A DNA stretch of 64,000 nt, from positions 85,374,001-85,438,000 of the forward strand of contig JBMRGM010000036.1 in NCBI GenBank assembly GCA_052327205.1. Reading direction: 5' to 3'. The notes below the pieces were generated by a model, which was not told the DNA's origin, ran no database searches, and saw only the letters and a list, made by a program, of their open reading frames with translations. Below are positions 5,929 through 64,000 of the stretch, in pieces. A program made the translations under genes and the position numbers. This stretch comes from Somniosus microcephalus. Its lineage: Eukaryota. Each line of letters opens with the position of its first letter. Within the stretch, counting starts at the first letter, position 1.

Positions 5929-6753
5929 AGCGAAGGTTCACCAGGCTGGTTCCTGGGATGGCAGGACTGTCGTATGAGGAGAGATTGGGTCGACTAGGCC
6001 TGTATTCACTAGAGTTTAGAAGAATGAGAAGGGATCTCATTGAAACGTATAAAATTCTGACAGGGCTAGACAGACTGGATGCAGGGACGATGTTTCCCCT
6101 GGCTGGGGGGGGTCTAGAACGAGGGGTCACAGTCTCAGGATACGGGGTAGGACATTTAGGACTGAGATGAGGAGAAATTTCTTCACTCAGAGGGTGGTGA
6201 ACCTGTGGAATTCTCTACTACAGAAGGCTGTGGAGGCCAAGTCACTGAATACAGGAAACTTTGGTTTATCCGGAGGTTAACTGTCCAGAATGCTCAAGCC
6301 ACCGGCAAAAATCAGGAGCCGTTTCGTTAGTTTTTTTTTCTTTTCGTTGCTTTTTTTTCACTAGTCAGGCTCTGCAAGGTCTCGCTGAAGCTGTTGCTAA
6401 GCTACAGAGACGCTTGCAAGGTACGGCTGATTGTTTAGAAGCTGTTGCTAAGCAACAGGGTTTGTTGCCAGATATGGAGCTCAAAATCTCCGTATGTTTC
6501 AACATTAACGCTGGTTTGTCCGGCAGTTTTGATGGGACGGCAACAGCTCGGTCCCATCGGTGCCGGATAGCACAAAGTTTCCTGTATATTTAAAAAGGAG
6601 ATAGATAGATTTCTAGATACGAAAGGCATCAAGGGGTATGGGGAGAGAGCGGGAATATGGTATTGAGATAGAGGATCAGCCATGATCATATTGAATGGCG
6701 GAGCAGGCTCGACGGGCCGAATGGCCTACTCCTGCTCCTATTTTTCTATGTTT
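5929..6753 (+). mobile_element. CR1 LINE 3' fragment interrupted by a MITE
   Basis: QRRFTRLVPGM...LEFRRMRRDLIETYK; GGGCCGAATGGCC tail; split at 6251/6585. Confidence 0.88.
6252..6584. mobile_element. Tc1/mariner (pogo/Tigger-type) MITE
   Basis: TIRs CAGGAAACTTTG...CAAAGTTTCCTG; TA TSD; removal restores the CR1 sequence gtcactgaatatatttaa. Confidence 0.9.
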
Positions 6754-7546
6754 CACGGGTTAAATTGCTTTCCTTTCACTTTTATTTTGAAAGAAAGAAA
6801 CAATTGCAAGGGTTTCATAAGTCGCTGAGTCAAAATCCTGGAACTCCCTCCCTAACCTTCACCACACGGACTGCAGCGGCAGCTCACCACCACCTTCTCA
6901 AGGGCAAATAGGGATGAGCAATAAATGCTGGCCCTGCCAGCAACGCCCACATCCTAAGAATGAACTTTTTTCACGTCCTATTGAATCTGCTTGCGTTGCT
7001 TTGGAGACATGGAAGTGCTACCTTAATTTGATGCTGCAACATCGCACGCACGAACCATTGCATTTATGTTGGCAGAAAATGTGGAATGAACTAAACCAAC
7101 AATTACTCCCATTACAGCCTCCCTTAGCTGCCTATTATCTAAAACACTAAATAAGGACCTTTTCATTCAGAGCACATTGTTAAAAAAAAATAACTGTGCT
7201 GCCATGTTTTAGTTCCCTCACCCTCAATTAAATTTACCTGATTCCCTTGCAAAAAGGTTAAACAAGCTGGCCTCGGGTCTCTCAGTGTCACTGCCACTGT
7301 ATTCAGCTGGTATGAACAGAAGTGCCGCCACGGGCGATCTGTCTTTTGAATTTCTTTCCTTCCGATCCGATCAGATCAGACTCGTGATCGTTCACTTGTG
7401 TGTTGTCCAAGCTTAACGTGGTGACAACTGAAGGTCCGGAAATCCAGTGGTACAAAGGCTTATTTGAGCCTCAACTGCCTCCCCCCTGAAACAGCTCAGC
7501 ACAGTCCAGGAGTCAGACCTGGGGACCCTTCCAGCTAGTATGGCTT

Positions 7547-10102: not shown

Positions 10103-10475
10103 AAGTAGACACAAAGTCAACATTCTTGGGACAAGGACAAAGGGCCAGTAAACAAATGCTGCTAAGAGCTAAATGATGTTATAACGCAGGACATTCTAGA
10201 AGGTAGGCGGGAACAATGTATATCGCATCAAACTGTATGTATAAATATCTACTAACCGCCGTAACAATTGGGAGAAGCTTGACTAAAGCAGGCGGGTCAT
10301 TCTACAGAAACGGTGGCATTCCTGTCTCTCACCTTTGCAGCAAGCAAAATACTTTAAATGAACTTAATGATCACATGTAATATATATTTTTGATAAATAT
10401 ACACTGTTCTTTTAATAATAAAACATATTTGAGTCATGTAATGAGCAATGCTTGTTTTTTATAATTTATATAAAA

Positions 10476-11039
10476 CTAGCTGGGGGTGCCCGGTGGTGCC
10501 GAGGCTTTTTTGAGGGCATGTTGTTGTTGGAAGAGAGAGAGAGCAAGTTGGGGGGAAGAGAGAGAGCGAGTTGGGGGAAAGAGAGAGAGCGACTGGGGGG
10601 GAAGAGAGAGAGTGAGAGACGGGGGAGTGAGCGCGACTGGGGGGGAAGAGAGAGAGCGACGGGGGGAAGAGAGCGAGAGACTGGGGGGGGAAGAGAGAGA
10701 GCGAGAGACGGGGGAAGAGAGAGAGCGAGAGACTGGGGGAAGAGAGAGAGCGAGAGACTGGGGGGAAGAGAGAGAGCGAGAGACTGGGGGGAAGAGAGAG
10801 AGAGCGAGAGACTGCGGGGGAAGAGAGAGAGCGACTGGGGGCAAGGGGGAGGAAGGGGAAGGGAGAGGAAGGGAAGGGGGAGAAGGGGGGGAGGGGGAGG
10901 GAAGGGGGGGGGGGAGGGAGGGAAGGGGGTAGCAGGAGGGGGGAGAGGGGGGGGAGGGAAGGGGGGGTAGGGAAGGGAGGGGGGAGAAGGTAGGGGAGGG
11001 AGGAGAGGGGGAGGGAGGAGAGGGGGAGAGAGGGGAGGG
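10476..11039 (-). mobile_element. Non-autonomous Helitron, 3' portion (5' end lost at the gap)
   Basis: Ends CTAG followed by T on the minus strand; subterminal GC hairpin; first ~70 bp nearly identical to 62196 onward; purine-rich tandem repeats. Confidence 0.75.
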
Positions 11040-23741: not shown

Positions 23742-26700
23742 TCACAGATTCAGTCTCTCTGGAGGCTTCCTGACTCTGTCCAGATAACGCCTCGGTGGTG
23801 TAGTAGTTTTCGGTGGTGTAGTCGGTTCTTCTGGCAAGGTCGATTCTGCTTGAAGGACAGTGTCAGGTTCATCTGATTCCAGTATTACCGGATCGGAGGT
23901 AGATGCTCTGGGTATCTCTGCTTCAACATTAGGCGTATAGAGTTGTGGAGTAGGTTGGCCCTTTGTGGATGACTCTATGATCTGGTCAACATGGCGCCTT
24001 ATTATGCTTTCACCAATGTCCACGGTATACATCAGCGGTCCTAGCCTTTTTCCAATAGTTCCAGGCTGCCATTTCTCGGTACGGTAGTCCCGGGCCAAAA
24101 CTTGTTGACCTATCTGGAAGGTTCTAGTTGGCCTTTCATTCATGCCTTGAAATTGCCGGTTCTCTACGTCCCTTCTGATGTTTGGCTTAATCAAATCCAG
24201 CCGGCATCTTAGTCTTCTATTGAAAAACATCATGGCGGGAGTTTGGTTTGTGACCGCATGTGTTGCATTCCTGTACACCAACAAGAAGTTATCTACCTTA
24301 TGTTGTAGATTTATGTCTTCATTACCCATGGCCTTTATGGCCTTCTTGAAGGTCTGGACAAACCTTTCAGCTAATCCATTGGTGGCGGGATGGTATGGGG
24401 CGGACGTGTAGTGCTTAACCCCATTGCTTTTTAAGAACTTCCTGAATTCTTCGGACACAAATTGCGGTCCATTATCAGAACAGATCTGTTCCGGCAGCCC
24501 ATTCCTGGCAAATATGGTCCTTAATACTGTGATGGTTTTTTCCGTGGTGGTGGAGGACATCTTTATTACATCCGGCCACTTGGAGTGTGCATCCACCGCG
24601 ATTAAAAACATTGAGTCCATAAATGGACCAGCAAAGTCGATATGTACCCTTTGCCGTGGAGATGAGGGCCACTCCCATGGATGCAGAGGAGCTTGTGGTG
24701 GGGCGTTTTGGACCTTCTGGCATCCTAGACAGCTCTTGGTTATTTCTTCGATGTCTCCATCAATACCCGGCCACCACACAAACGCTCTGGCTAGGTTCTT
24801 CATTTTCACTCCACCCAGATGCCCCTCGTGAAGCTCCTTTAGCACTTTATGCTGGAGTTTGGGTGGAATCACCACTCTAGATCCACACATCAAGGTTCCT
24901 CGGCACACTGACAGCTGTTCTCTTCTTTGCGAAAATGCTGGCAACATTGGTTCGCCATGTGCTGGCCATCCCTCCACCGTTAAATCGTAGACTCGTGAGA
25001 GAGTCGGGTCATTTCTTGTTTCCTTTTCGATCATAGAATTTGTTACTGGTAGACATTCCACTATGGTTGAGTGGAACATCTCCACTGGGTCCACTGTAGT
25101 CGCCTCTTCTACCACTGGCAACGGTAGGCGCGATAACCCATCAGCATTTCCATGCTGTTTGGACCTTTTGTATTCGATGTCATATTGGTGTGCCCCTAGT
25201 AAAACGGACCACCTCTGTAGCCTTTGCGCTGTCATAGTGGAAACGGCCTTGTTAGGGTTGAATATGGATACCAACGGCTGGTGGTCTGTCAGCAATGTAA
25301 ACTTCTTGCCCTGCAGGTAATGATTGAATTTCTTTACTCCCCACACAAGGCTGAGAGCCTCCCTATCTATCTGAGCATAATTGCGCTCAGCGGAGGTCAA
25401 TGATCGGGATGCAAATGCGACTGGCCTTTCTGAGCCATTTGGCAACTTGTGTGAGAGTACTGCTCCAATACCATAAGGGGAAGCATCACAAGCTAGACGA
25501 AGAGGTAGCGTTGGATTGAAGTGAGCCAACACTTCCTCAGAGGTGATCAATGCCTTGCTTTTGCGAAAGGCCTTCTTACAGTCCTCACTCCACTTCCATG
25601 GTACTTCTTTCCGCAACAGAGCATTCAGCGGGTGCAGCACCGTGGATAGATTTGGCAGAAACTTATGGTAATAGTTAATCAACCCCAGAAACGACCTCAA
25701 CTGTGATACATTTTCCGGAGCGGGGGCCTTCACGACAGCTTCGATCTTTTCAGGTGACTTGTGCAGCCCCTCTTGGTCAATGACATGACCACAGTACGAG
25801 ATCCGTTTCTGGAAGAACTCACATTTCTGGCGGTTAGCTCGAAGGCCATATTCTTTCAACCTGGTGAGCACCAGTTTCAAATTTGTGAGGTGTTCCTCCT
25901 CGTCCTCTCCCGTAATCAGGATATCGTCCAAGTAACACTGAGTGCTTGGAATACCCTGTAAGACCTGCTCCATGACCCTCTGCCAAATTGCTGGAGCCGA
26001 AGCCACTCCAAAAACCAGTCTATTATATCGATACAAGCCTCTGTGCGTGTTGATTGTGAGATACTGGCGCGACTCTTCCTCGACTTCCATCTGTAAGTAT
26101 GCTTGCGCCAGGTCTATCTTGGTGAAGTGTTTCCCGCCAGACAATGAAGCAAAGATATCCTCAATCCGCGGAAGCGGGTATTGTACCGTGTGAAGCACTG
26201 GATTAACTGTGATCTTGAAGTCTCCGCAGATGCGGACCTTTCCCGGTCCCCCTGGCTTGTTACTCGACGAAGGCTTCATGACGGGAACAATGGGCGTGGC
26301 CCACTCACTCCAGTCCACCTTAGACAGTACCCCTGAACGTTCAAGCTCCTCCAGTTCTGCCTCCACAGCAGGTCGTATCGCGTAAGGTACCGATCTGGCT
26401 TTGAAAAATTTTGGGCTTGCATGTTCTGCAATCTTGATTTTTGCCTTAATTCCTCTCAGTATTCCCAGTCCCTGCTGGAATACCTCTTTAGCCTCGTCCA
26501 ATATTCTGGACAATCGTTCAGGTTTGACATCTTTCTTTCCGGAATCTACCGTCATTGTGTTTAGGGAGTGCCAGTCTATCTTTATTTTCCTGATCCACTC
26601 CCGCCCCAGAAGTGGTGGACCTCCCTCGGGTAGTACATATATGTCCATTCCTTGGTGTTCTTTGCCCTTGTGTCTCACCTTGCCTTTTATCTTCCCGATG

Positions 26701-27710
26701 GGGTATACTTTATGCCCCATGTATGTCTGCAATACTATCTCCGTATCCCGTAGGGGAATATGTTTGAATAACTTTTTGTAATCTTGCTTATTCATGACCG
26801 TCAACGCCGATCCGGTGTCCACTTCCATCTTCACTTGGACTTTTGCAATCTGTAGTGTGACCCAGATAGTTTGTCGGTCAGTTTCCTTACTCACATTGTG
26901 AATCCTCAGACTACCCAGTTCCTTGCTGTTGGAGTCTGAATCCGAATTCTGTTCATCTGAACTCTTCACAGTCACCTTATGTACCTTTCTGTACTTCTTC
27001 TGCGGTGACTTATTGTTGCTGGTCTTCTTTCCTGACCGGCATACTTTAGCAATGTGACCAAGCTTGCCACATTTTCTACATTCCTGGTTTTTAAACCAGC
27101 ATTGGTTCTGGTCGTGTGTTGTCTTCCCACAACGATAACATTTAGTTGTACCCGAAGTCATTTGATCCACGCTGAGTACCGCTGTCTTCAGCTGCATTAC
27201 CACCGTGCCTCTCGCTGCGGCTTCGTGCGATGCTGCAATAAGGACAGCCTTATCAAGTGTAAGATCGTTCTCTTCGAGCAGTCGCTTTTGTGTTTCTTCC
27301 TTCGACATCCCACACACGAACTTGTCTCTCAGTGCCTCTGTCAGATTTTCCCCAAACTGACAGTATTTTGCTAGCCTACGCAGTTCAACCAAGTACTCCG
27401 CGTTGCTTTCCTCTTTTAGTTGCGTTCTCACGTAAAATTTAGATCGTTCCGCTAACATCAGCGGTGTGGGGTTCAAATGATCCTTCAGGACAGCAACAAT
27501 ATTAGCGAAAGGCTGATCCGCCGGTTTAGCTGGTGATAGAAGATGCTTCAATAGCCCGTATGTCTTCGCACCCATTGAGTTTAGTAAGGTTAGAGCTTTA
27601 TCATAATTTGCTATCTTATTGACCTTACAATATATCTCGATGCATTCTACATACGTGGCCCAATCTTCCACATCGGAATCGAAATCGTTGATGTTACCAC
27701 GCTTAGGCAT
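23742..27710 (-). CDS. Gypsy gag-pol polyprotein (Gag with 2 CCHC, protease, RT, RNase H, integrase), about 1322 aa
   Basis: Single uninterrupted ORF from ATG 27710 with CYRCGKTTHDQNQC, CRKCGKLGHIAKVC, VDTGS, YLDD, CDAS, HEGH..C..C and IDF..SDNG..AER. Confidence 0.95.
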   Translation of the reverse strand: MPKRGNINDFDSDVEDWATYVECIEIYCKVNKIANYDKALTLLNSMGAKTYGLLKHLLSPAKPADQPFANIVAVLKDHLNPTPLMLAERSKFYVRTQLKEESNAEYLVELRRLAKYCQFGENLTEALRDKFVCGMSKEETQKRLLEENDLTLDKAVLIAASHEAAARGTVVMQLKTAVLSVDQMTSGTTKCYRCGKTTHDQNQCWFKNQECRKCGKLGHIAKVCRSGKKTSNNKSPQKKYRKVHKVTVKSSDEQNSDSDSNSKELGSLRIHNVSKETDRQTIWVTLQIAKVQVKMEVDTGSALTVMNKQDYKKLFKHIPLRDTEIVLQTYMGHKVYPIGKIKGKVRHKGKEHQGMDIYVLPEGGPPLLGREWIRKIKIDWHSLNTMTVDSGKKDVKPERLSRILDEAKEVFQQGLGILRGIKAKIKIAEHASPKFFKARSVPYAIRPAVEAELEELERSGVLSKVDWSEWATPIVPVMKPSSSNKPGGPGKVRICGDFKITVNPVLHTVQYPLPRIEDIFASLSGGKHFTKIDLAQAYLQMEVEEESRQYLTINTHRGLYRYNRLVFGVASAPAIWQRVMEQVLQGIPSTQCYLDDILITGEDEEEHLTNLKLVLTRLKEYGLRANRQKCEFFQKRISYCGHVIDQEGLHKSPEKIEAVVKAPAPENVSQLRSFLGLINYYHKFLPNLSTVLHPLNALLRKEVPWKWSEDCKKAFRKSKALITSEEVLAHFNPTLPLRLACDASPYGIGAVLSHKLPNGSERPVAFASRSLTSAERNYAQIDREALSLVWGVKKFNHYLQGKKFTLLTDHQPLVSIFNPNKAVSTMTAQRLQRWSVLLGAHQYDIEYKRSKQHGNADGLSRLPLPVVEEATTVDPVEMFHSTIVECLPVTNSMIEKETRNDPTLSRVYDLTVEGWPAHGEPMLPAFSQRREQLSVCRGTLMCGSRVVIPPKLQHKVLKELHEGHLGGVKMKNLARAFVWWPGIDGDIEEITKSCLGCQKVQNAPPQAPLHPWEWPSSPRQRVHIDFAGPFMDSMFLIAVDAHSKWPDVIKMSSTTTEKTITVLRTIFARNGLPEQICSDNGPQFVSEEFRKFLKSNGVKHYTSAPYHPATNGLAERFVQTFKKAIKAMGNEDINLQHKVDNFLLVYRNATHAVTNQTPAMMFFNRRLRCRLDLIKPNIRRDVENRQFQGMNERPTRTFQIGQQVLARDYRTEKWQPGTIGKRLGPLMYTVDIGESIIRRHVDQIIESSTKGQPTPQLYTPNVEAEIPRASTSDPVILESDEPDTVLQAESTLPEEPTTPPKTTTPPRRYLDRVRKPPERLNL

Positions 27711-28581
27711 CTTCACAATCTTTCTGAGAACAACAACGAAATTTTTATTTACTTTTTAACTTTTTTTTTTCAAAAATGGCGGTTTCCCGCGCTTATCTTC
27801 TTCCCCGCCTCCGAGGATGGCGGTTTCCCACGCTTGTCTTCCTCTGGCGGGGGGTAAGCTTTGCCCTCGGGCGACGACCGCTGGCTTTCGGGTTTCGCAG
27901 CCTGCGCGCCGGCTTCAGTTTATTCTGAAGCTCTCCCGCTCGCTCGGGCTCTGTCTCTCCCTCAGCGGCTTTCAATCGCGCCTCCCCAGCCCTCTCGCAG
28001 TCCGGTCCTTTCCTCCCCGGCTGCGGCTGAGTTCTCCGCGGTTTTATTTATTTATTTCTTCCCGCGCCTTACGATCCCGGTCGCAGCGCCTCGCGGCCTC
28101 GGTAGCTGCCCGGCCTTTTTCGCCGGTTGCGGTCGAGCTGTCTCCCGACGCTGTTGCGTCTCCCAGCCCGCTTGTAGCCCGGTCTCTCACACCGGCTGCG
28201 TTCCCGCTTATACCGCGGCTTCCGTGCCCTACGCTGCCCCAGTCTCAGCGTCTCTGGCCCCGACTTCTGTCCGGCTCCTTTCCCCCGACCGTGGTTGAGT
28301 TCACCGCCCTTATCCTCCGTTTCTTTTTATTTTCCCCCTACTCACAGTCAACGTGGCCGACTTGCTTCTCGTGGCTGATCGGCTCACTCACCACCGTGGC
28401 AGAAGGGACGATCACTGCCTGTTGCTGATGGAAGGCTTCGTGTCTGAATTCTTCCTTCTTCCTTGCTCTGCAGACTCGAGTCTTCTCTCAGCAGAACGAC
28501 GAGGGCGGATGCCTCTTCTCGACGCTCGTTAACTGCTTCGGATGTATCGCTGCCGCAGGGTAAGATCGAACTCGTCGCCAC

Positions 28582-53848: not shown

Positions 53849-53965
53849 ACTTGGCAGGCAGGCAGTAGCCGCTGGTAATCTTAGCATCTCCGGGGCTGCA
53901 CCCTCCCAGCGTACTGCATTCCTTCTGTAGCAAGGGCCCTGCTGCCAGGTGGATCGAGCCATCCA
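53849..53965 (-). CDS. MACROD1: Internal coding exon (117 bp, phase 1-1) of a MACROD-family mono-ADP-ribosylhydrolase gene
   Basis: Acceptor ttttctctttttgcag, donor gtgagt; translates (V)[38 protein letters not shown], matching the macro-domain VDG.IHRAAG...EC..L..C..G.AKIT.GY.LPAK exon. Family call is strong; MACROD1 versus MACROD2 is less certain. Confidence 0.88.
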
Positions 53966-60917: not shown

Positions 60918-62195
60918 TGCAAAATACTGCGGATGCTGGAAATCTGAAACAACAACAGAAAATGCTGGAAATACTCAGCAGGCCAGGCAGCATCCGTGGA
61001 GAGAGAAACAGAGTTAACGTTTCAGGTCTGGGACCCTTCATCAGAACTGGAAAAAGCTGGAGATGTAACAGATATTAAGCAGGTGCAGAGACAGCGGGGG
61101 GGGGGGTTAGGAGGGGAGGAAGAAATAGAAAGAACATCCTGTACTTTTGTAAGAGGCAGGAAAGATAAAATGTTGCAAATGGGAATGGCAAAAATCACAC
61201 CATGAAAAATGGGGGCAGGGATAATTAGCTGAAATTGTTGAACTCAATGTTGAGTCCGGCAGCCTGCAAAGTGCCCAATCGAAAGATGAGGTGCTGTTCC
61301 TCGAGCTTACGTTGAGCTTCATTGGAACAATGCAATAGCCCGAGGACAGAGAGATCAGAGTGGGAGTGAAGCGGTGAATTAAAGTGACAGGCGACCGGAA
61401 GCTCAGGGTCACCCGTACGGACTGAACGGAGGTGTTCCGCAAAGCGGTCGCCCAATCTGCGTTTGGTCTCCCCAATGTAGAGGAGACCGCATCGTGAGCA
61501 GCGAATACAGTATATTAAATTGCAAGAAGTACAAGTAAATCGCTGTTTCACCTGGAAGGGGTGTTTGGGGCCCTGGACAGTGGGAAGGGAGGAGGTAAAA
61601 GGGCATGTGTTGCATCTCCTGCGCTTGCACGGGAAGGTGCTGGGCGAAGGGGAAGGGGTACTGGGGGTGGTAGAGGAGTGGACCAGGGTGTCGCGGAGGG
61701 AGCGGTCCCTTCAGAATGCTGAAAGGGGAGGTGAGGGGAAGATGTGTTTGGTGGTGGGATCACGCTGGAGGTGGCGGAAATGGCGGAGGATGATCCGTTG
61801 AAGGTGGAGGCTGGTGGGGTGAAAGGTGAGGACAAGGGGAACCCTATCGTAGTTCTGGGAGGGAGGGGCAGGGGTGAGAGCAGAAGTGCGGGAAATAGAA
61901 CGGACACGGTCAAGGGCCGTGTCAACCACGGTAGAGGGGAATCCTCGGTTGAGGAAAAAGGAAGACATGTCAGAAGCACTAGTATGGAAGGTGGCATCGT
62001 CAGAACAGACGCGGCGGAGACGGAGAAACTGGGAGAATGGAATAGAGTCCTTACAGGAAGCGGGGTGGGAGGAAGTGTAGTCCAGGTAGCTGTGGGAGTC
62101 GGTGGGCTTGTAGTGGATGTTTGTTGAAAGCCGATCGCCAGAAATGGAGACGGAGAAGTCAAGGAAGGGAAGGGAAGAGTCGGAGATGGACCATG
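60918..62195 (-). mobile_element. Penelope-like retroelement, 5'-truncated (RT C-terminus plus GIY-YIG)
   Basis: LPFLD...YKPTD..YL.YTSSHP...SQFLRLRR; NLIYCIRCSRCGLLYIGETKR...EH; in-frame stop near 61711. Confidence 0.92.
61012..61048 (-). ncRNA. Minimal type I hammerhead ribozyme motif
   Basis: AGTT-CTGATGA-AGGGTCCCAGACCT-GAAACGTT-AACT: intact core, stems I and II, palindromic AACGTT. Confidence 0.8.
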
Positions 62196-63601
62196 AGCTG
62201 GGGTGAGCCCGGCGTTGCCGAGGCTTTTTCGAGGGCATGTTGTTATTGGAAGAGAGAGAGAGAGCGACTGGGGGGTGGGGGGGCGGCAGAGAGAGACTTG
62301 GGGGGGGGAACAGAGAGAGACTGCGGGGGGGGGAACAGAGAGAGACTGGGGGGGGGGAACAGAGAGAGATTGGGGGGGGAACAGAGAGAGACTGGGGGGT
62401 AACAGAGAGAGACTGGGGGGAGGGGGGAACAGAGAGAGACGGGGGGGGAACAGAGAGAGAATGGGGGGGGAACAGAGAAGCTCCCCCCCCCCGCGATTTC
62501 CCGAGGCTCTCCCCCCCCCCCGCGATTTCCCGAGGCTCTCCCCCCCCCCGCGATTTCCCGAGGCTCTCCCCCCCGCGATTTCCCGAGGCTCGCCCCCCCC
62601 GCGATCTCCCGAGGCTGTGTGCTGGCGTCACGGGGGCCGTGCGCATGCGTGCCGGCGTCAAGGCGGCTGCGCAACTGGCGGCCTCTTCATTTTTTTAAAA
62701 CTCATGCGTGCTGGCGTCACGGGGTGGCGGGCCGTGCGCATGCGTGGTTTCAAGACCGCCGGCGTGCCCCGTTGCCAGGGTAACGGGGCCGTGCGAATGC
62801 GTGCCGTCGTCAAGGCGGCCGCGCAACTGGCGGCCTCTTCTTTTTTTTTTAAACTCATCTTTCGCCGAGTAAGAGGAGATTAAATAAATAGAGAGCAGCA
62901 AAAGAGGAGGAGGGAGTAGGAGTCGCTCGGTAGGCCCATGCAAGAAGGACGGTAGATGTGAATAGGAGGCAGGGCTCGGCTGCCGGTTAACTAAGTGGCC
63001 CCTCGGGTCGGACGCAGGCCTGGTCTCGAACGAGGAGCCAACTGCCCTGCCCACCGCGTGCGCATTTGCTAAACACAATTTAAAACACAAATAAATTGTT
63101 ATTTAATTCCCTAACACATCATTAAAATATTTACCTTAGTTCCCTAACACACAGAAAGTGTGGGGGAAAAAATCGTGAAAAATCAAGATGGCGGCCACTC
63201 ACCTCGGTTCAGAAGGATAAGGCCGCCCACACACGCACCGATTGGTCGACCGATCAGGTCACCGAAGCGTAGGATTGGTCAATCGTCGAGTCACTCGACA
63301 CTCAACTGTAGGACGGCACGCGCCAGGAACCCGCCGTACGATTGGTCGACCTCGACGTCACACGGTTGCTAATGAGATGCTAATGAGCGGAACGCTGAAG
63401 GTTTTTCGGATACCGCGGGCGCGGTTTTTGTCCGGCCGAAACGTAAATACGCCTATGATCGGTCCGGAATCGCAAGCTTTCTTTTGAGGTGACGCGCGCG
63501 TCGGTACGCTCTGTAACTTTCAAACGTATAGAACACGGACAGACAGACAGACAGACAGACAGACATCAGGACAGACAGAAGAGCCGCTTTATATATATAG
63601 A
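62196..63601 (-). mobile_element. Non-autonomous Helitron with internal minisatellites and a promoter-like segment
   Basis: 5' A|TCTATATATATAAAG followed by (TGTC)n; 3' hairpin CGGC-AAC-GCCG; the terminus matches the CTAG-ended copy at 10476 except for the last 2 nt. Confidence 0.8.
62280..62615. repeat. Two adjacent minisatellites (about 22-bp G(n)AACAGAGAGAGACT; about 29-bp C(n)GCGATTTCCCGAGGCTCT, 5 copies)
   Basis: Visible tandem units. Confidence 0.9.
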
Positions 63602-64000
63602 TGAATTGGCCTCAACTGCCTTGTGTGGTAGAGAATTCCACAGGTTCACCACTCTCTGGGTGAAGAAATTCCTCTTCATCTCTGTCCTAAATGGCTTACC
63701 CCTTATCCTTAGACTGTGACCCCTGGTTCTGGACTCCCCCGCCATCGGGAACATCCTTCCTGCATCTAGTCTGTCTAGTCCTGTTAGAATTTTATAAGTT
63801 TCAATGAGATCCCCTCTCATTCTTCTAAACTCCAGCGAGTATAAGCCCAATCGACCCAATCTCTCTTCATACATCATTCCTGCCATCCCAGGTATCAGTC
63901 TGGTGAATCTTCGCTGCACTCCCTCCGTGACAAGAACATCCTTCCTCAGATAAGGCGACCAAAACTGCACACAATACTCAAGGTGTGGTCTCACCAAGGC
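63602..64000 (-). mobile_element. CR1 LINE fragment whose 3' end is cut by the Helitron
   Basis: ORF 63566-63997 has CR1 motifs up to VEANS and then runs into the Helitron 5' end. Confidence 0.88.

Follow-up and report, generated by a model that had tools for sequence, protein, structure and literature searches.

The analysed window, a stretch of 64,000 nucleotides from Somniosus microcephalus (contig JBMRGM010000036.1, positions 85,374,001 to 85,438,000), carries a transposon copy and, further along the same minus strand, an exon of a host gene. The transposon copy, at 62196–63601 (−), is ~1.4 kb long, lacks a RepHel gene and fits a non-autonomous Helitron of the HLE1 type, an assignment made by its termini. 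It opens with TC at 63601–63600 directly after an A at 63602, and closes at 62196–62222 (−) with a hairpin (62222–62208; −7.5 kcal/mol as DNA) and a truncated terminus, CAGCT, from which the final two bases of CTAG have been lost. This start, the alignment with family members and their 3′ ends agree with the preliminary description, which had recognized a Helitron here. The first ~535 bp (63066–63601, −), hereafter the 5′ module, are common to several subfamilies with different interiors and to autonomous RepHel elements (identity 92.7% to locus L074, 90.8% to L062, and 94.3% to L122). Over 380 bp, the copy shows five substitutions and one deletion; two of the substitutions are CpG transitions, and the deleted base falls in a GC box.

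The insertion target was a LINE fragment at 63602–64000 (−), which we take to be CR1-like, and the 3′ end of the Helitron adjoins a 5′-truncated GIY-YIG (Penelope-like) retroelement at 60930–62195 (−; lower boundary approximate), with a PF01541 match (E 1.4e-4) of 22.5 bits against a cut-off of 22.6. The window copy (L001, at 63602) and a second copy, L022, have different interiors, lie on different contigs and occupy the same base of the CR1-like LINE, with 460 bp of flank 95% identical; this may reflect either a preferred target site or conversion. Elsewhere in the window, a second Helitron 3′ end at 10475–10500 (−) likewise carries the CT-rich tail, the hairpin and CTAG|T; the part upstream of it enters a stretch of N and gives no match to the 5′ module. 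A 1,337-codon uninterrupted ORF at 23742–27755 (−) reads, by eye, like an LTR retrotransposon gag-pol.

The host feature is a 117-bp internal exon of a MACROD1/2-like gene at 53849–53965 (−). It encodes macro domain sequence (PF01661, E 9e-8) with best PDB matches to MACROD1 and MACROD2, and it lies 9.24 kb downstream of the Helitron's splice donor on the same strand, as had been described. Judging from the acceptor and phase of this exon, the Helitron probably lies within a MACROD intron; an upstream MACROD exon was not found by motif search of the window and 20 kb beyond it, nor by a Macro family search. Two MACROD-like genes (C36:84941768-84941887; C3:135140855-135559476) have matching macro-domain exons 418–486 kb apart.

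A cluster of promoter-like motifs sits 250–420 bp inside the Helitron terminus. Read along the minus strand, two CTCATTAGC repeats (63368–63387) come first, a unit also seen repeatedly in front of CCAAT boxes at the 5′ ends of related RepHel elements. A CRE-like core, TGACGTC (63354–63360), follows as part of the first repeat unit. The preliminary description had placed a GACGTCA core on the minus strand here; the site exists, but GACGTCA is the plus-strand reading of 63354–63360, and the minus-strand form at 63360–63354, TGACGTCG, matches 7/8 of the CRE palindrome. Three GACCAATC boxes, predicted as likely NF-Y sites, follow within 63240–63347 (−), at 63347–63340, 63280–63273, and 63247–63240, with the reported spacings of 67 and 33. 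After them come a GC box (63222–63228, −), one G shorter here than in the family majority, and a splice-donor consensus, CCGAG|GTGAGT (63197–63207, −), whose exon end is 63203 as proposed. The YY1 consensus GCCGCCATCTTG (63195–63184, −) is also present, though one base intervenes between it and the donor, so that it does not follow directly as had been stated. No ATG, whether a host start codon or part of a captured coding piece, occurs in 63345–63203, that is, from the first CCAAT box to the donor. The names NF-Y, YY1, NRF1, CRE, and RFX denote consensus matches, and binding is predicted. The combination of CCAAT boxes, GC box, short exon and YY1 site resembles housekeeping promoters. The surrounding DNA is CpG-rich, as described, with an observed/expected ratio of 1.44 in 63001–63500 and 1.03 in 62501–63000.

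The motif cluster exceeds chance. Among 10,000 dinucleotide shuffles of 63160–63420, at least three CCAAT boxes arose in 9, the donor in 94, and the YY1 consensus in 16, and the three boxes together with the donor in none (0/10,000), with the reservation that shuffling takes the three boxes as independent. The CRE core, found in 856 shuffles, does not by itself exceed chance. The boxes in fact resemble copies of one ~32–33-bp unit, for which 22/23 bases are identical in a relative, L079. Because two boxes of L079, separated by 32 bp, belong to a near-perfect tandem copy, the 33-bp spacing would arise by duplication within the lineage; the spacing, earlier read as an NF-Y signature, is thereby explained without one, but selection for NF-Y spacing stays compatible with it.

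Beyond the module, the interior is specific to the subfamily and internally repeated, with a 74-bp duplication (62858–62785 and 62705–62633; 91.9% identical). The two NRF1-like motifs, CGCATGCGCA, are present within 62640–62744 (at 62744–62735 and 62649–62640, −) as had been noted, but they lie 460–560 bp past the donor, in this interior. An RFX X-box-like GTTACCCTGGCAAC occupies 62771–62784 (−), and similar palindromes occur in the interiors of other subfamilies (L019, L105). CT-rich tandem repeats at 62250–62480 (−) contain four acceptor-like YAG sites (62413, 62346, 62321, and 62268).

The family appears to be young and high in copy number: a first look for the 5′ 471 bp returned 3,205 candidates in the 6.4-Gb genome, which are candidates and not a copy number. 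Of these, 40 were scored (93–100% identity) and 30 fetched. All 30 begin at the Helitron TC end, a check in which a diverged single-copy host donor would rank lower. Their 5′ termini read ATC in 24, GTC in 3 (each after another copy's CTAG), and are offset by the match start in the remaining 3; CTAG|T closes 14 of the 18 downstream ends reached. Fourteen of the 30 loci adjoin another copy head to tail, with three pairs neighboring one another in one array. A strong-looking internal acceptor lies ~310–390 bp past the donor in a sister subfamily (20/30 loci).

The motifs are retained across these best-scoring copies (donor 29/30, YY1 30/30, all three CCAAT boxes 26/30), which bears out their proposed conservation. 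The portable and promoter-like character claimed for the block is also supported, promoter activity being a matter of prediction. Such retention says little, however, as the 30 copies are the most similar ones and stand only ~1.4% from the majority. More divergent modules are more telling. Twelve were found, and with the two closest excluded, identity to the window copy in the other 10 stands at 0.90–0.94 between −50 and +10 relative to the donor, at 0.65 between +10 and +30, and at 0.26–0.36 from +30 on, so that conservation stops immediately past the YY1 consensus. Motif positions are identical at 370/390 against 516/660 for non-motif positions; the modules were chosen by donor pattern, which makes the donor part of this comparison circular and leaves the CCAAT and YY1 parts unaffected, and they are related to each other, so that the counts are not independent events. 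The pattern is suggestive of selection on the motifs. Among the 30 closer copies, transitions are approximately fivefold enriched at CpG (70/2816 vs. 18/3507 at other C/G), a bias usual under germline methylation and suggesting that most copies are so methylated. The high CpG content could also be read as a protected CpG island; this was rejected, as the copies stand so close to their majority and their decay is CpG-biased.

The 5′ module also heads autonomous elements. From 150 scored PF14214 matches, 20 RepHel loci with long open frames were picked and 10 kb around each was compared. Module homology lies upstream of RepHel on the same strand at 14/20; the other six are without a same-strand match in ~9 kb (one has opposite-strand matches only, five have none), and 82 kb of other DNA, taken as a control, gave no module match. 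At 9/20 loci the CCAAT–donor–YY1 block stands upstream of the ORF with no intervening element 3′ terminus, counting L064, whose ATG was not located, and L062, with 500 masked bases past the donor. Among the 17 starts that were located (3/20 were not), 14 have an acceptor-type AG one base ahead of the ATG, after a T-rich tract. Two of the three starts without this AG are those of L070 and L080, where the CCAAT array is missing as well; together with the six loci that have no same-strand match, they show that the block is not needed by every RepHel family. All parts of the layout occur in L074: TC at 6637, three CCAAT boxes, donor at 7025, acceptor AG ending at 7528, and ATG at 7530, with the 503 bp from donor to acceptor AT- and pyrimidine-rich and the acceptor T-rich, although this frame meets a stop at codon 151. 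A complete element is represented by L062 and L082, which together hold 690+797 stop-free codons in one frame with PF14214 (Rep) and PF05970 (Pif1) domains, the hairpin and CTAG|T.

Both Helitron termini are common to autonomous RepHel elements, the 5′ end in L074 and L062 and the 3′ tail in L083–L087. The tail (62250–62223 in the window) consists of CT repeats, AACAAC and ATGCCCTCGAAAAAG, and is similar to the acceptor and start of RepHel (AACAG, then one base, then ATGCCCTCAAGAAAA), which might mean that today's 3′ end goes back to an old deletion derivative. A different idea, that the tail is the window copy's own remnant of a RepHel start, was dropped, since the autonomous copies carry the same ATG-like tail.

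Other RepHel 5′ ends form a graded series. CCAAT boxes are absent from L070 and L080, present without the donor in L066 and L079, and accompanied by a related GTGAGTGGC donor in L063, L061 and L077, beyond which stand the families with the full block. In another subfamily (L061, L077, and L105), three to six CCAAT boxes form an array unlike that of the window copy, together with the related donor; the 5′ end of L063 is intermediate. Two loci, L074 and L105, look like chimeras in which the window copy's 5′ end is joined to another RepHel subfamily; in L074, and in L105 together with L122, the 5′ module is attached to a RepHel subfamily that otherwise carries a different promoter array, which suggests swapping of 5′ ends between Helitron families. 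The 5′ region of one autonomous Helitron, L079 (6906–7220), contains a poly(A)-bearing retrocopy of ribosomal protein L36 (PF01158, E 1e-38), similar to the retrogene cargo of bat Helitrons.

The reading that we prefer, at a probability of roughly 78%, is that the block is the Helitron's own 5′ end, where it likely serves RepHel as promoter and first splice donor, and that this gene-less copy, lying within a MACROD intron, is probably inert. A transposase promoter with a 5′-UTR intron is the most likely explanation because the module forms the 5′ end of RepHel elements that have an acceptor just before the ATG. What is observed comprises its position and homology, the shared termini, the acceptor-type context, the pattern of conservation and the CpG decay. 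Transcripts of autonomous copies would begin immediately past the CCAAT array and GC box. Their first exon, short and free of ATG, would run to the donor; the intron that follows, rich in pyrimidines and 0.5 to several kb long, would be removed by splicing onto the acceptor one base ahead of the RepHel ATG. Non-autonomous derivatives retain both termini, and hence the block, with the transposase swapped for other interior sequence. From these relationships we infer promoter activity, NF-Y and YY1 binding, use of the intron, and silence of the window copy.

RNA reads bear on part of this model. Two runs of one study (X11 and X12), from a species that is perhaps a relative (its best run contains 0.59 of the words), place 1,277 and 2,975 reads on 62860–63535, mostly 90–99% alike and thus from sister copies. 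The reads cross the donor mostly unspliced, with depth passing from 454 to 439 in X11 and from 980 to 951 in X12, and no junction from the donor to a host exon or to RepHel appears among the loose ends listed for either run. Among the six largest loose ends listed per run (ahead of 118 further rows), in reads possibly from a relative species, none lies at the donor, so that splicing to any single place stays at <66 of ~450 reads in X11 and <146 of ~980 in X12, below ~15% of local depth. The largest, at 63181 and 63184, continue into the genomic sequence found past YY1 in L075, L076, and L078, and those reads are therefore unspliced. This argues against the donor being used often in these samples, whether for its own transposase or for MACROD. 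In X12, first-mate strands go from +130/−313 at 63458–63480 to +669/−312 at 63205–63227, more weakly so in X11; the flip was not accepted as evidence of divergent transcription, as strandedness is unknown and X11 differs.

It is also conceivable, though unlikely, that the block is a host promoter and first exon, taken up as in the bat element HelibatN3 with NUBPL, spread by Helitrons and possibly adopted by RepHel. The resemblance to housekeeping promoters noted above would fit such an origin, and the sharp end of conservation past YY1 could mark a capture boundary; promoter capture is, moreover, documented in bats (PMC4778049, PMC4224331). However, the RepHel families show graded intermediates, the L079 boxes are near-perfect tandem copies of one another, the exon brings no host ATG or coding piece, and every fetched best match (30/30) starts at the Helitron TC, a rank that a diverged single-copy donor would not reach. 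With 40 of the 3,205 candidates scored, the capture put forward in the preliminary description is not supported; the block instead heads autonomous RepHel elements, whose ATG has an acceptor of its own.

We regard it as quite improbable that the block is no promoter at all, its motifs being side effects of tandem duplications within a GC-rich terminus that is retained for transposition. The CCAAT boxes do arise through duplication, some RepHel families are without the block, and RNA depth over the module tracks the profile of the contig run X9 (kind not on record), as expected if numerous intronic copies were passively read through. Against this, the block lies 250–420 bp inside the terminus, and an upstream donor paired with an AG one base before the ATG (14/17) is hard to explain without transcription and splicing, as are variable bases between conserved motifs and the loss of conservation past YY1.

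The preliminary description further held that the donor is aimed at the MACROD exon, the window copy serving as an alternative MACROD promoter that splices 63203 to 53965. The copy is in sense orientation, has an intact donor and is young by its few substitutions, HelibatN3 traps exons likewise (PMC4778049, PMC4224331), and the strand flip in X12, which concerns some family copies in a library of unknown strandedness, would be a weak hint in the same direction. Between donor and exon, however, a crude pyrimidine rule marks nine acceptor-like sites (four of them inside the Helitron), and 15 AATAAA/ATTAAA hexamers lie there too. Neither exon 53965–53849 nor the following exon that was identified, 486 kb on, offers an in-frame Met. 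All three ATGs of exon 53965–53849 are in the wrong frame, and reading from the first of them meets a stop in that following exon. As the Helitron exon is itself ATG-less, a spliced product would likely be non-coding or degraded. With read depth also steady across the donor—in reads that are family-wide and perhaps from another species, and so no direct test of the window copy—this role for the copy is very hard to credit.

Comparison with known systems places the family among Helitron1-like elements. Non-autonomous HLE1/Helitron1 elements are defined by TC after A and a 3′ hairpin with CTRR before T (PMC11417382). The present family is like them in having TC after A, a family hairpin with CTRR before T, termini shared with autonomous elements and head-to-tail arrays, and the window copy is unlike them in lacking the last two bases of CTAG, at the Penelope-like junction. 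The words "promoter" and "intron" have zero occurrences in the main text of that paper. For Heli1Xen1 of Xenopus laevis, PMC12001565 presents the 5′ end as the presumed transposase promoter, with Foxn4 and Myb ChIP peaks and low RNA coverage. Heli1Xen1 is similarly a vertebrate Helitron1 with a presumed promoter at its 5′ end, many non-autonomous copies and some tandem arrays; unlike the present family, it is described without a CCAAT array, donor or 5′-UTR intron ("CCAAT" and "splic" each occur 0 times), and the host list given there does not include sharks (PMC12001565). A sequence link between the two was considered and not drawn, as five family motifs are absent from the 5 supplementary files of that paper. 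By analogy, the Foxn4 and Myb peaks on Heli1Xen1, taken with the RFX X-box-like sites, offer hints of ciliated-cell or germline control.

Heli1Xen1 is a closer parallel than HelibatN3 of Myotis bats, which carries the NUBPL promoter, six codons and a donor and has chimeric transcripts shown for it (PMC4778049, PMC4224331). The window copy is like HelibatN3 in being non-autonomous, in joining promoter-like DNA to a donor and in being able, in principle, to trap exons when it lies sense in an intron; it differs in that its block traces to the RepHel gene of the transposon itself and is without an ATG, and no chimeric transcript was seen among the loose ends listed. In the open-access literature, no description of a CCAAT/YY1 promoter with a 5′-UTR intron was found for vertebrate RepHel.

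Much of what lies at this locus is thus ordinary transposon anatomy, a Helitron keeping its own front end. More speculatively, and with appreciable doubt, the lineage may have evolved its own NF-Y/YY1 promoter and donor, such that acceptor-less copies would form thousands of exon traps, some of them starting host isoforms without any capture. The comparison does supply a testable gene model for vertebrate RepHel, in which a CCAAT array precedes a short non-coding exon and an intron whose acceptor lies one base ahead of the ATG. Were the promoter active, this family would naturally provide donor-bearing promoters throughout a 6.4-Gb genome, and it would offer a way to ask which cells express the Helitron transposase.
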